Positions 2,142-31,761 of a stretch of DNA of 64,000 nucleotides are shown here, one piece after another. Location: assembly GCF_000027125.1 (NCBI RefSeq), contig NC_017626.1, one strand, 5' to 3'. The notes beneath the pieces were generated by a model, which was not told the origin of the DNA, searched no databases, and was given only the letters and a program-made list of their open reading frames with translations. Source of the DNA: Escherichia coli 042 (lineage in GTDB: Bacteria; Pseudomonadota; Gammaproteobacteria; Enterobacterales; Enterobacteriaceae). Both the position numbers and the translations under genes were made by a program. Position 1 is the stretch's first letter, and every line of letters starts with the position of its first letter.

Positions 2142-3753
2142 GAATTTCTCCTGAAGCGCTGACTTCGCCAAACCAGCCGTTATCATCTACCGTACGCAGC
2201 GAAATGGCGTTATCCATTGGAATCGAAAATTTGACAGTAGTCTTATCCATCTGCCCCACTTCGCCAGAGATATCAGTCCACGGTGTAGTCAGCCACAGCG
2301 CATCGGTCATATCCCGCCAGCTATCATCGCACCCGGCATCGTAGGTTTTTGTAGCTCCGTTGCGGGCAATAAAGGAAAGTGTCGCCGGGAACGGTACTTT
2401 CGCCTTACCGTCATCGGAGCTGAAGACACAATAGGAGCGCCCGCCAATCACCTGCGCGGGTCCGGTCACCTTGATCAGCACTTCGTCGGCAGCTGTTTTA
2501 CCGCTGGTGGTTACGATATAACCGAAATCGAGTGCCGACTCGCCGCTACCAACATATCCCTCCCGCGACGGTGTCTGAGTATATTCATCGGAGATAATAC
2601 TGATGCTGAAATCACGGGGTTTGATAATCAGCGTGTTGGAGGTAGAAAATTCATACCAGCCAGACTCCGGTGATGTGGTGTTCTGAAAGCGAAAGTTGAA
2701 TAGATCTTTGGTGTTGATATCGCTGATCCCGAGGTTCACCATCTGCTTAAAGAAGTTGCTCGAGAAGAAAACATAGATCGAGTCTGCGCTCTTCATCTCG
2801 TTGAAGGTGTAGTAATAGGCAGTATTGCTCACCGGTTTCCATGAACTGCCATTCAGACTGAACTGCATATCGTACGCCCCGACGGCCGAGGCTAACGACG
2901 AGTTGGCGATCGCCGGGAATATATGGATTGAGGTGTTGCTGAGTCCGTTTGTTTGCAGGGTATAGTTAACCATCTTACAACTTAATCCTGAACGGCTGCC
3001 GATGGTTTGCGTCCGGCAGTCGGCGTTCCCTTCGCCCAGAGTCGGTACTCCGTCGCTGTTGATAAATACTTCCGCCAGCGAGTGGGTATTTATCAACCGT
3101 AGATTTGCTGCTTTCGTATGGGTGACGTTGCGAACATACCAGTTGCCGGAGGCCTGATCCTTACAGCGTGCGCCGCTGCTGGCGTCATAGTTCACAGAGG
3201 TCTGGCAGGCATTGATGGTCATTGTAAAGCTGCTGCCGACGGGCATTTGTTGCAGATACTGGTAAAACGCGTCTGACAACATGCCGTGCATCCACTTCGC
3301 GCCGCCGCTGGTCACCGTCGCGCCATAAAATCCACTGGCGTCGGTGGTTTGCGGCAGGATAAGACTGGTGGTCATATTACACCCTGCGTACCAGTTGATG
3401 CAGCGCAAGCCAGTTAAAGGAGATGAAACTGGTGAATTTTCCAGCCACATATCAAACTTCCAGTTGGTATAAAGGCCGGTGTTGTAACCGTTATCAATGT
3501 AGCCGAGGCTTTGCTGATAGATGGTTCCTGAACCATTGTATTTTAAACCGGTCCAGCGGTTGGCACCGGTCAGGCGCGGATCCAGCGCCCCGCCAGGCGT
3601 GACGAAAAAGTTGTCGTCTGAGTTGTTTTCGACAAACACAAACTCGCGTGCCGGAGCATCCGCCCAGGTTGTTTTGCTCACTGCCGCTCTGAGCGCGGTT
3701 GCAGGCCAGATTAGCGCAAAGATTATCATCGCTATCAGTAGGTTAACTCTCAT
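2110..3753 (-). CDS. ecpD: EcpD, tip adhesin/polymerised tip subunit of the E. coli common pilus
   Basis: 547-aa ORF with N-terminal signal peptide; size and position in the ecpRABCDE order. Confidence 0.9.
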
Positions 3754-21875: not shown

Positions 21876-21910
21876 TATTAAGAATATGAAAGTAACATTC
21901 TAATAAACAA

Positions 21911-21945
21911 TAATGGCGTTGACATCTTCAACGCCATTATTTATT
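21911..21945. terminator. Bidirectional rho-independent terminator between fdeC and ykgA
   Basis: 8-bp stem GGCGTTGA / TCAACGCC (21915-21922, 21928-21935) with a 5-nt loop, flanked by A/T-rich runs on both sides. Confidence 0.6.
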
Positions 21946-28734: not shown

Positions 28735-30162
28735 ATGTCGATCAAAACCAGTAATACAGATTTTAAGACACGCATCCGTCAGCAAATTGAAGATCCGATC
28801 ATGCGCAAAGCGGTGGCAAACGCGCAGCAGCGTATTGGGGCAAATCGGCAAAAAATGGTCGATGAATTGGGGCACTGGGAGGAGTGGCGCGATCGGGCCG
28901 CCCAGATACGTGATCATGTTCTGAGTAATCTCGACGCTTATCTGTACCAGCTCTCAGAAAAAGTGACGCAAAACTGCGGTCACGTCTATTTTGCAAAAAC
29001 CAAAGAAGACGCTACCCGCTACATTTTACAGGTTGCCCAACGCAAAAATGCCCGGAAGGTGGTGAAATCTAAATCGATGGTGACCGAAGAGATTGGTGTC
29101 AATCATGTGTTGCAGGATGCTGGCATTCAGGTGATTGAAACCGATCTGGGTGAATACATTCTCCAGCTGGATCAAGATCCGCCCTCTCATGTTGTGGTCC
29201 CGGCAATTCATAAAGATCGCCATCAGATCCGTCGGGTGCTACACGAACGTCTGGGCTATGAGGGGGCGGAAACGCCTGAAGCAATGACCTTATTCATCCG
29301 GCAAAAAATCCGCGAAGATTTCCTCAGTGCTGAAATAGGTATTACCGGCTGTAATTTCGCGGTGGCAGAGACCGGTTCGGTATGCCTGGTGACCAATGAA
29401 GGTAATGCGCGAATGTGTACCACGCTGCCTAAAACGCATATTGCAGTGATGGGAATGGAGCGTATTGCCCCCACGTTTGCCGAGGTAGATGTATTGATCA
29501 CCATGCTGGCGCGCAGTGCCGTTGGTGCACGTTTGACGGGATACAACACCTGGCTGACAGGACCGCGCGAAGCGGGGCACGTTGATGGTCCTGAAGAGTT
29601 TCATCTGGTTATTGTCGATAACGGGCGTTCTGAGGTGCTGGCCTCTGAATTTCGGGATGTGCTGCGCTGTATTCGCTGCGGGGCTTGTATGAATACTTGT
29701 CCGGCATATCGCCATATTGGCGGTCATGGATATGGCTCTATTTATCCAGGGCCAATTGGTGCGGTGATTTCTCCGCTACTTGGCGGCTATAAAGATTTTA
29801 AAGATTTACCCTACGCCTGCTCTTTATGCACTGCTTGTGACAACGTGTGTCCGGTGCGTATTCCGCTGTCAAAACTGATTTTGCGTCATCGTCGGGTGAT
29901 GGCTGAAAAAGGGATCACCGCAAAAGCAGAGCAACGGGCGATAAAAATGTTCGCTTATGCCAATAGTCATCCAGGATTGTGGAAAGTCGGGATGATGGCT
30001 GGTGCTCATGCGGCAAGCTGGTTTATCAATGGCGGCAAAACACCACTCAAATTTGGCGCGATTAGCGACTGGATGGAAGCACGCGATCTTCCTGAAGCTG
30101 ACGGAGAGAGTTTCCGTAGTTGGTTTAAGAAACATCAGGCGCAGGAGAAAAAGAATGGATAA
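28735..30162 (+). CDS. ykgF: YkgF, LutB-like iron-sulfur protein (4Fe-4S ferredoxin domains plus DUF162/LUD)
   Basis: 475-aa ORF; two CxxCxxCxxxCP ferredoxin motifs (CIRCGACMNTCP, CSLCTACDNVCP). Confidence 0.9.
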   Translation: MSIKTSNTDFKTRIRQQIEDPIMRKAVANAQQRIGANRQKMVDELGHWEEWRDRAAQIRDHVLSNLDAYLYQLSEKVTQNCGHVYFAKTKEDATRYILQVAQRKNARKVVKSKSMVTEEIGVNHVLQDAGIQVIETDLGEYILQLDQDPPSHVVVPAIHKDRHQIRRVLHERLGYEGAETPEAMTLFIRQKIREDFLSAEIGITGCNFAVAETGSVCLVTNEGNARMCTTLPKTHIAVMGMERIAPTFAEVDVLITMLARSAVGARLTGYNTWLTGPREAGHVDGPEEFHLVIVDNGRSEVLASEFRDVLRCIRCGACMNTCPAYRHIGGHGYGSIYPGPIGAVISPLLGGYKDFKDLPYACSLCTACDNVCPVRIPLSKLILRHRRVMAEKGITAKAEQRAIKMFAYANSHPGLWKVGMMAGAHAASWFINGGKTPLKFGAISDWMEARDLPEADGESFRSWFKKHQAQEKKNG

Positions 30163-30850
30163 TCGGAGCGAATTTTTGAATAACGTTGCTCAGGCACTGG
30201 GTCGCCCGCTGCGACTTGAACCGCAAGCAGAAGATGCGCCGCTTAACAACTATGCTAACGAGCGGCTTACCGAACTTAACCAACAGCAGCGCTGTGACGC
30301 GTTTATTCAGTTTGCCAGCGATGTTATGTTGACGCGCTGTGAGCTGACCAGCGAGGCGAAGGCGGCAGAAGCTGCAATACGTCTGTGTAAAGAGCTGGGA
30401 GAGCAGTCGGTCGTGATTAGCGGTGACACGAGGTTGGAGGAATTGGGGATTAGCGAACGTTTGCAGCAGGAATGCAATGCCGTTGTTTGGGATCCGGCGA
30501 AAGGTGCCGAGAATATCTCGCAGGCAGAGCAGGCTAAAGTGGGTGTCGTGTATGCTGAATATGGTTTAACCGAATCGGGAGGCGTGGTTCTTTTTTCCGC
30601 CGCCGAGCGCGGGCGTTCATTGAGCCTGCTCCCGGAATCTTCTCTTTTTATCCTGCGTAAAAGCACAATCCTGCCGCGTGTAGCGCAACTCGCAGAAAAA
30701 TTGCATCAGAAAGCGCAGGCCGGTGAACGAATGCCGTCCTGCATTAACATCATTAGCGGCCCTAGTTCAACGGCGGATATTGAGCTTATCAAAGTCGTCG
30801 GGGTTCATGGTCCGGTGAAAGCGGTGTATCTGATTATTGAGGATTGCTGA
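30155..30850 (+). CDS. ykgG: YkgG, LutC-like protein (LUD domain)
   Basis: ORF 30002..30850; start set at ATG 30155 (MDNRSEFLNNVAQ), overlapping the ykgF stop by 8 nt; 231 aa. Confidence 0.85.
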   Translation: MDNRSEFLNNVAQALGRPLRLEPQAEDAPLNNYANERLTELNQQQRCDAFIQFASDVMLTRCELTSEAKAAEAAIRLCKELGEQSVVISGDTRLEELGISERLQQECNAVVWDPAKGAENISQAEQAKVGVVYAEYGLTESGGVVLFSAAERGRSLSLLPESSLFILRKSTILPRVAQLAEKLHQKAQAGERMPSCINIISGPSSTADIELIKVVGVHGPVKAVYLIIEDC

Positions 30851-30956
30851 GAGAGATATGAAGTCTGGACATAAACCTGAAGGCGGCATACGAGGTTGTG
30901 AATAGCGTTAAGGACAACCTGACTTAACCCCGTTCCGTCATGGTTATGCTGCTCTT

Positions 30957-30997
30957 CTGTAAATATCCTGACATTAATAATGCCAGGATATTTACAG
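30957..30997. repeat. Perfect 14-bp inverted repeat (hairpin or dyad site) between convergent ykgG and ykgH
   Basis: CTGTAAATATCCTG - 13 nt - CAGGATATTTACAG, read directly from the sequence. Confidence 0.5.
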
Positions 30998-31092
30998 TGA
31001 AAAAGACAGGAATCCATTCCTGAAGACGGGCTCCCTTCCCGGTCATTGTCACTTCAGTTTTATACAGGCACTCTCTATCAGAATGCTGTTTA

Positions 31093-31761
31093 TTACTGCC
31101 CAGAGTTTTGTTGGTATTCATCTACCATTTTTTTGACAAGACAAAACATTACAGAAATTACAATGCTTAGAAAAAATCCCAGAATCAGGCAAATGGCAGC
31201 AGGGTATTTATTTTTTATTTCTGGTGAGCTTATAGTGACACAGTCATCACCGTTCGGATACAATGACCAGTTCCTGGTCAGGTATATCATTTTTGTATAA
31301 AGCTCACTGTTAATTGCTGAAGGCGTTTGTATCTCATCAAGAACTTGCCTGCCATTATGGTATTCTGACGCATACCATTTGATAATAGACGCATGCACGC
31401 GAGATATTTCCACTTCAGCAGTTGGTAAATCTCTCTTATCTCCTGACCATTCCAGCTTTATTTCTCTGTTCTTGACATCTGGGCTGGTGTGAAAAAATGT
31501 AGTAATTCGCTGTATAACATCTTCAGTCATTGTGGTCTGACAGGCAAAGTTATTATTGCTATCACAGTTAACAAGTATGCCTGGTGTTGTCTGATTTATT
31601 TTTAGGCTGTAACTCACTTTTATATTATCTTTATTGATATACAGAAATAAAAGCACCATTGCCATACAGATGGCTATAATAAAAAGGATAACACGAATCT
31701 TTTTCTTCAGATAAAATAAAATCTCAATCAGATCGATATCCTGTTTGATTTGTTCATTCAT
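31093..31761 (-). CDS. ykgH: YkgH, predicted inner-membrane protein
   Basis: 222-aa ORF with N-terminal and C-terminal transmembrane helices. Confidence 0.8.
   Translation of the reverse strand: MNEQIKQDIDLIEILFYLKKKIRVILFIIAICMAMVLLFLYINKDNIKVSYSLKINQTTPGILVNCDSNNNFACQTTMTEDVIQRITTFFHTSPDVKNREIKLEWSGDKRDLPTAEVEISRVHASIIKWYASEYHNGRQVLDEIQTPSAINSELYTKMIYLTRNWSLYPNGDDCVTISSPEIKNKYPAAICLILGFFLSIVISVMFCLVKKMVDEYQQNSGQ

Follow-up and report, generated by a model that had tools for sequence, protein, structure and literature searches.

A single-copy near-palindrome between the convergent genes ykgG and ykgH of Escherichia coli and its possible role as a 3′ stem-loop of the ykgEFG transcript

The spacer between the convergent genes ykgG and ykgH of Escherichia coli contains a 41-bp near-palindrome that is far above chance expectation and is specific to E. 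coli. We tentatively interpret this element, at a probability of roughly 0.35, as a stem-loop that blocks exonucleases at the 3′ end of ykgEFG transcripts terminated by Rho; a neutral origin of the palindrome is nearly as likely. The palindrome is ordinary in the sense that it would at most add another example to a class of 3′ stem-loops already described. It was analyzed within a stretch of 64,000 nt from the chromosome of E. coli 042 (hereafter, the window), and coordinates refer to this window unless K-12 is named (Table 1).

The convergent setting of ykgG and ykgH, proposed in a first-pass annotation of the window, agrees with the RefSeq annotation of near-identical genomes, in which ykgE, ykgF, and ykgG on the plus strand are followed, after a 242-bp gap, by ykgH and betA on the minus strand. 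The ykgH gene has a GC content of 35.6%, versus 50–57% in its neighbors; no homologs of its product were found outside Escherichia among the 5.8 billion proteins searched, no Pfam domain was found in it, and a search of genome contigs for orthologs returned just two tiny contaminant contigs. Two YkgH protein alleles, about 95% identical, circulate, and the gene is a pseudogene in O157:H7 (contig L005, internal stop) and in RM9088 (contig L003, frameshift). More divergent YkgH variants were set aside as uninformative, as they are frameshifted genes, IS-interrupted genes, or G-to-A-converted reads. Two short open reading frames also occur near the palindrome. The first, of 15 codons (MKSGHKPEGGIRGCE, 30859–30906, plus strand), directly follows ykgG and was dropped as a candidate gene, given that the ST131 allele reads ATG-TAG and the frame is not conserved. 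The second, of 70 codons on the minus strand (31017–30805), spans the palindrome, and its start is placed downstream of the mapped ykgH 3′ end.

Table 1. Features of the ykgG–ykgH region, in window coordinates.
Feature	Position	Strand	Description or basis
ykgG (lutC), final gene of ykgEFG	30155–30850	+	stop codon 107 nt upstream of the palindrome
Near-palindrome, 41 bp	30957–30997		perfect 14-nt arms and 13-nt quasi-palindromic center
Perfect arms	30957–30970; 30984–30997		CTGTAAATATCCTG; CAGGATATTTACAG; center ACATTAATAATGC
Palindrome center (apex)	30971–30983		ACATTA-A-TAATGC in the window strain; variable
U-tract of the ykgH terminator, TCTTTTT	31000–31006	−	directly abuts the palindrome; Term-seq, TRS
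Stem-loop CAGGAATGGATTCCTG, hairpin of the ykgH intrinsic terminator	31007–31022	−	terminator scan; folding of window and K-12 alleles
ykgH 3′ UTR upstream of the terminator U-tract	31007–31092	−	does not include the palindrome
Candidate Rho-utilization region	31012–31193	+	C > G, C/G 1.2–1.9 in 78-nt windows; inferred from composition
ykgH, AT-rich orphan gene	31093–31761	−	stop codon 95 nt from the palindrome
Equivalent of the Rho-termination peak	31310	+	about 310 nt past the hairpin; measured in K-12

The perfect 14-nt inverted repeat noted in the first-pass annotation is real, with its arms 13 nt apart, and a repeat search extends these arms to 20 nt (30957–30976 and 30978–30997), with 95% complementarity, one mismatch, and a single nucleotide between them. 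The half-site CTGTAAATATCCTG occurs in the 64-kb window just as the two arms themselves, even when up to two mismatches are allowed (0.23 matches expected). Perfect inverted repeats of at least 14 nt with a loop of at most 20 nt, of which the real window has two, were absent from all 100 sequences simulated for the window with a first-order Markov model; for perfect inverted repeats of at least 12 nt, there are four in the real window versus a simulated mean of 0.05. The RNA hairpin predicted for the palindrome has a folding energy of −22.0 kcal/mol (plus strand) or −26.2 kcal/mol (minus strand), with z about −8, and the corresponding single-stranded DNA hairpins reach −14.7 and −16.6 kcal/mol. 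In all four alleles described below, and on both strands, the RNA hairpin falls between −20.6 and −27.8 kcal/mol.

Three further long, perfect inverted repeats lie elsewhere in the window. Two of these, at 21909–21941 (AATAATGGCGTTGA...TCAACGCCATTATT) and 552–584 (ATAAAAATGGCGC...GCGCCATTTTTAT), resemble classic bidirectional terminators with A/T-tract flanks, and the third, at 3058–3097, has the form GTTGATAAATAC-N16-GTATTTATCAAC.

Of 5,426 complete E. coli genomes searched by BLAST, 5,141 carry a 55-nt element containing the palindrome, always at a single locus; the two places reported per genome are both strands of one palindrome. We looked for a recurring repeat family, a possibility raised in the first-pass annotation as evidence against its own interpretation, and the element proved to be single-copy. 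Among 50,697 phage records it has no significant match, its plasmid matches are exclusively F′-type or chromosome-derived E. coli DNA, and a scan of viral contigs for the dyad returned a single match, with arms of 11 nt, which falls within a phage open reading frame and is due to chance. An Rfam scan of the 3 kb around the palindrome, at E ≤ 10, returned two noise matches only. Similar to the REP/BIME and ERIC elements, the palindrome is an intergenic, hairpin-forming sequence past the 3′ end of an operon, where it may stabilize RNA; unlike those families, which are GC-rich and occur in tens to hundreds of copies, it is single-copy, AT-rich, and without an Rfam match. A REP/BIME/ERIC-type family or a MITE was ruled out given the one locus per genome and the absence of dispersed copies.

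The genes that come after ykgG are different in other enterobacteria (DUF386, GntP, Hcp, or IS1), where the sequence is unrelated to that of E. coli right from the stop codon. The palindrome is not present downstream of the ykgG orthologs in the other genera examined. In each of four other lineages, a stable, GC-rich, U-less hairpin follows the ykgG stop codon, and in three of the four it does so at a distance of 10–15 nt.

The first-pass annotation had held that the palindrome is not a typical intrinsic terminator, and this view is supported both by the order of its flanks and by published RNA 3′ ends. Past the hairpin, the plus strand reads TGAAAAAGAC and the minus strand reads AAGAGCAGCA, with no U-tract in either direction, and a terminator scan does not call the palindrome. 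On both strands, the 5′ side is pyrimidine-rich and the 3′ side is A-rich; on the plus strand, the flanks read CTCTTC (5′) and GAAAAAG (3′), which is the opposite of the A-tract/T-tract order of a bidirectional terminator. The annotation had also described the repeat as lacking a flanking T-run on either strand. This is accurate for the 3′ side of the hairpin, where neither strand has one, but on the minus strand a T5 run (TCTTTTT, 31006–31000) abuts the 5′ side of the palindrome in the direction of ykgH transcription. Like intrinsic and bidirectional terminators, the palindrome is a hairpin located in a spacer between convergent genes. It differs from the window repeats at 21909–21941 and 552–584, which follow the order A-tract, stem, T-tract, in that its flanks are reversed, and it differs from intrinsic terminators in that the mapped ykgH 3′ end lies before it, at a separate small hairpin with a U-tract. 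Both candidate functions were rejected: that of an intrinsic terminator given the lack of a 3′ U-tract and the minus-strand ends at or before the first palindrome base, and that of a bidirectional terminator given the inverted order of its A- and T-tracts.

The small hairpin and U-tract at 31022–31000 on the minus strand, which the first-pass annotation missed, are the true terminator of ykgH. The K-12 coordinate equals the window coordinate plus 293,603, as derived from the ykgH coding sequence (K-12 324696–325364), and the spacer has no indels between the K-12 and window alleles. Among the Term-seq entries listed in supplementary file 1 of Adams (2021) is a strong minus-strand 3′ end at K-12 324603, detected in at least two conditions, at the junction ...GCCTGTCTTTTT/CACTGTAAAT. 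Similarly, the TRS entries listed in supplementary files 4–6 of PMC10687069 give a “primary” ykgH terminus at 324603 or 324600, with p down to 1e-46 and a 97-nt 3′ UTR. In the window, K-12 324603 falls on the final U of the tract (31000) and 324600 on the first base of the palindrome (30997). Because the ykgH 3′ ends map at these two positions, the mature ykgH RNA stops short of the palindrome, which is thus not the ykgH terminator.

In K-12, this terminator has a weak stem of four base pairs (CAGG/CCUG), and the 41 nt upstream fold with an energy of −8.5 kcal/mol; K-12 has a C-to-A difference at window 31011, and the stem is better in the window allele, where it has 6 bp. In the published entries listed, K-12 shows a single, dominant, sharp ykgH 3′ end despite the weak terminator stem. 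The ykgH 3′ UTR is a candidate Hfq-bound, 3′UTR-derived sRNA by RIL-seq, which northern blots with probes at approximately window 31011–31048 did not verify (PMC5145812; PMC8175672). Nothing in Rfam matches the ykgH 3′ UTR. The palindrome is downstream of the end of this candidate sRNA (31000/30997) and is therefore not part of that RNA.

On the plus strand, a Rho-termination region antisense to ykgH has its peak at K-12 324913, with a Rho score of 6.7 and p = 2e-23 (Adams 2021, supplementary file 2). Because this termination occurs ∼310 nt farther on, plus-strand transcripts cross the palindrome, and ykgEFG read-through RNA would contain its hairpin (−21 to −28 kcal/mol, with no U-tract). The stretch in which C exceeds G starts about 15 nt past the hairpin, and its enrichment is moderate. 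Rho-terminated transcripts of E. coli have been shown to end at stable, U-less stem-loops with a rut site directly downstream, which shield them from PNPase and RNase II (Dar and Sorek, 2018, NAR; PMC6061677). The palindrome shares with those stem-loops a stable hairpin that lacks a U-tract and is located past an operon without an intrinsic terminator, and just downstream the locus has moderate C > G enrichment, a candidate counterpart of the rut site, with Rho termination documented further on, on the same strand. By analogy, ykgEFG transcripts, which lack an intrinsic terminator, would read through the ykgG–ykgH spacer until Rho terminates them antisense to ykgH. The 19–20-bp, U-less stem-loop may then block 3′-to-5′ exonucleases (PNPase and RNase II), such that trimming back to the hairpin would give the ykgEFG mRNA a stable 3′ end; we infer both this trimming and its effect on stability. 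The first-pass annotation had suggested an RNA stability element, and its suggestion is thus divided by strand: it fails for ykgH, as the palindrome is outside the mature RNA, and it is plausible for the plus-strand ykgEFG transcript, given Rho termination and a U-less stem-loop.

Additional observations bear on the protective interpretation in both directions. In its favor, polymorphism spares the stem, and U-less hairpins occupy the same slot in other enterobacteria. Against it, the hairpin lies 107 nt past the ykgG stop codon, versus 10–15 nt in other species, and the alleles A and D (see below) favor opposite strands, which leaves no strand-specific signature. The stem also differs from those of Dar and Sorek (2018) in being unusually long (19–20 bp), AU-rich, and a near-perfect DNA palindrome, of which the opposite strand folds equally well. 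Furthermore, unlike the loci of Dar and Sorek (2018), which are defined by a steady-state 3′ end at the hairpin foot, the Term-seq and TRS entries listed include no plus-strand 3′ end at this position (K-12 about 324600–324605), and ykgEFG is weakly expressed in the conditions sampled. Because this mapped end is missing, the protective interpretation is held at just the probability given above.

To describe variation in the palindrome, we compared 21 sequences (14 haplotypes) from genomes and from a metagenome scan that was anchored on the flank rather than on the palindrome. Variable positions number 0 of 28 in the arms, 4 of 13 in the center, and 27 of 201 in the flanks, and the four variable palindrome sites (30971, 30972, 30977, and 30978) are all in the center. 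If uniformly distributed over the 41 bp, four variable sites would all fall in the central 13 nt with a probability of about 0.007 [C(13,4)/C(41,4)]. The difference between center and flanks has p = 0.10 (0.023 without singletons). One further genome, picked for an extra mismatch, alters the outermost pair only (30997 G>A). Four center alleles occur in E. coli: A in the window strain and ST131, B and C in O104-type and O157-type strains, and D in K-12. In alleles B and C, the palindrome is perfect (20+1+20); the central base is their sole difference, which makes them reverse complements of one another. Pairing is better on the minus strand for allele A and on the plus strand for allele D. The stem is thus preserved while the apex drifts, a pattern that fits both selection on pairing and palindrome-intrinsic correction. 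The difference between arms and flanks is borderline (p = 0.053), and the invariance of the arms could equally stem from hairpin-templated correction.

The locus is also a hotspot for IS insertion (contigs L003 from RM9088, at about 3043; L004 from AH19D088, at about 3071; L034; L019), and IS1 was found inside the right arm of the palindrome. Elsewhere, the end of an IS element, annotated as an IS3-family transposase and which we take to be IS2-like, lies 36 nt upstream of the palindrome and is accompanied by a deletion reaching tauA, and IS3-family elements are present inside ykgH. In two metagenome contigs, L027 (at about 146) and L038 (at about 947), the E. coli spacer is joined to the same foreign DNA 10 nt past the palindrome (window about 31007). 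These two contigs carry different palindrome alleles, and the foreign DNA is Firmicute-like, with a C-terminal transketolase fragment and an FGGY sugar kinase. The junction is in no complete E. coli genome, and the contigs are probably chimeric assemblies despite their shared breakpoint. Two Logan contigs, L020 and L021, have a systematic G-to-A conversion (e.g., GGGAAGGGA to AAAAAAAAA), which points to libraries of damaged or chemically converted DNA, not to natural variants. Finally, a match to the half-site with two mismatches (CTGGATATTTATAG), possibly due to chance, occurs in the ykgH–hyxB spacer of O157 (L005, 2512–2525) and ST131 (L006, 2514–2527), strains in which ykgH and betA are separated by an autotransporter island (hyxB or an adhesin); the window strain is without this island.

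Quasipalindromes undergo template-switch mutation and correction. The palindrome could be a neutral by-product, created when replication folded back or switched templates within a dispensable, AT-rich segment acquired horizontally, with its own mutation keeping the arms symmetric through templated correction and a mutable, single-stranded apex. As in quasipalindromes, its variants are found at the apex and in the outermost pair, and two alleles are exact reverse complements. The perfect symmetry of alleles B and C and the clustering of substitutions at the apex, with an inconsistent strand preference, are in keeping with such an origin, as is the lack of a plus-strand 3′ end at the hairpin among the published entries listed. 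The element is, moreover, single-copy and restricted to E. coli, like the adjacent orphan ykgH with its low GC content, and insertions of IS1, IS2, and IS3, deletions, and ykgH pseudogenization are all tolerated at the locus. On the other hand, the arms are intact in essentially all of the ∼5,140 genomes, across phylogroups with flanks that differ by about 5–6%. The confinement of the four variable sites to the central 13 nt and the recurrence, past ykgG, of U-less hairpins with unrelated sequence in other species also count against neutrality. Template switching in quasipalindromes is a mutational behavior rather than a function, and for this site it is proposed by analogy.

A role on the minus strand is a less probable alternative, and one that we consider unlikely. 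RNA reading through the weak ykgH terminator would gain the 19–20-bp hairpin, which could serve as an entry point for RNase III or RNase E, or as an insulator. The read-through RNA would then be degraded, or trimmed to an Hfq-protected U-tract, which would sharpen the 3′ end of the ykgH mRNA and of the candidate sRNA and limit antisense transcription into ykgG. Consistent with this, the mapped ykgH 3′ ends listed lie 0–3 nt from the palindrome edge, the ykgH 3′ UTR is Hfq-associated in RIL-seq, and the hairpin is perfect on this strand in the window allele (−25.1 to −26.2 kcal/mol); furthermore, the K-12 terminator is weak (−8.5 kcal/mol), yet the TRS entries listed give one dominant terminus with a very small p. 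The 3′ end is, however, at the canonical distance past a hairpin and U-tract, for which plain intrinsic termination suffices, and the hairpin of the K-12 allele is weaker on this strand (−21.1 kcal/mol). More doubtful still is a combined scheme, in which the sharp 3′ end of the ykgH mRNA and candidate sRNA would come from processing of read-through RNA at the palindrome foot and not from termination alone, and in which the palindrome would act for both units, halting exonucleases on the ykgEFG strand and, on the ykgH strand, providing an insulator or a point of nuclease entry.

We attach a similarly low likelihood to a function at the DNA level, whether as a protein-binding dyad (the other suggestion of the first-pass annotation) or as a cruciform between the convergent operons, acting as a site for a regulator or nucleoid protein or as a roadblock. 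The element is symmetric, and its DNA hairpin is stable enough to extrude. To our knowledge, it contains no known operator motif; resemblances of the center to what we take to be GntR-type (TGGT-N3-ACCA, in the K-12 allele only), Fur-like, or LexA boxes were dropped as allele-specific or poor fits. The dyad found no specific support, as arm complementarity over 19–20 positions far exceeds the needs of a regulator half-site. The half-site does not recur in the 64-kb window, and the central 13 bp, which would be the contact region for a single dimer, is the variable part. A roadblock would, judging from the footprint of RNA polymerase, place RNA 3′ ends about 15 nt upstream of the protein edge and not at the palindrome edge. 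A weak, type-C peak (intensity 5.6) was reported in the ykgG/ykgH spacer, at U00096.2 position 323832, by genomic SELEX with RNA polymerase-sigmaE holoenzyme (Shimada, 2017; PMC5493296). By coordinate conversion, and at the coarse resolution of the array, this in vitro peak would be within about 10 bp of the palindrome, which is the one hint of protein binding here; inspection of the spacer by eye revealed no convincing sigmaE promoter.

Least probable of all is a relic of a mobile element or recombination junction, such as the end of an insertion that brought in ykgH, a degenerate MITE, or an attachment site: the whole spacer from the ykgG stop codon is unrelated to the sequence after ykgG in other enterobacteria, ykgH is an AT-rich orphan, and IS insertions and island variation concentrate at the locus, but the palindrome is single-copy in each genome with no related copy in the phages, plasmids, or viral contigs searched, no transposase, target-site duplication, or second end was seen, and it lies 107 nt inside the E. 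coli-specific sequence rather than at its edge.

If the protective interpretation is true, the palindrome would be one more U-less, protective stem-loop ending a Rho-terminated E. coli mRNA, in this case that of the lactate-utilization operon ykgEFG. The analysis also has corrective value: the true ykgH terminator is the adjacent small hairpin with its U-tract, and the palindrome is neither in the candidate ykgH 3′UTR sRNA nor part of a repeat family. Furthermore, as a near-perfect palindrome transcribed from both sides, the locus could offer a small, naturally occurring system in which to tell selection on RNA pairing apart from mutation intrinsic to the palindrome.
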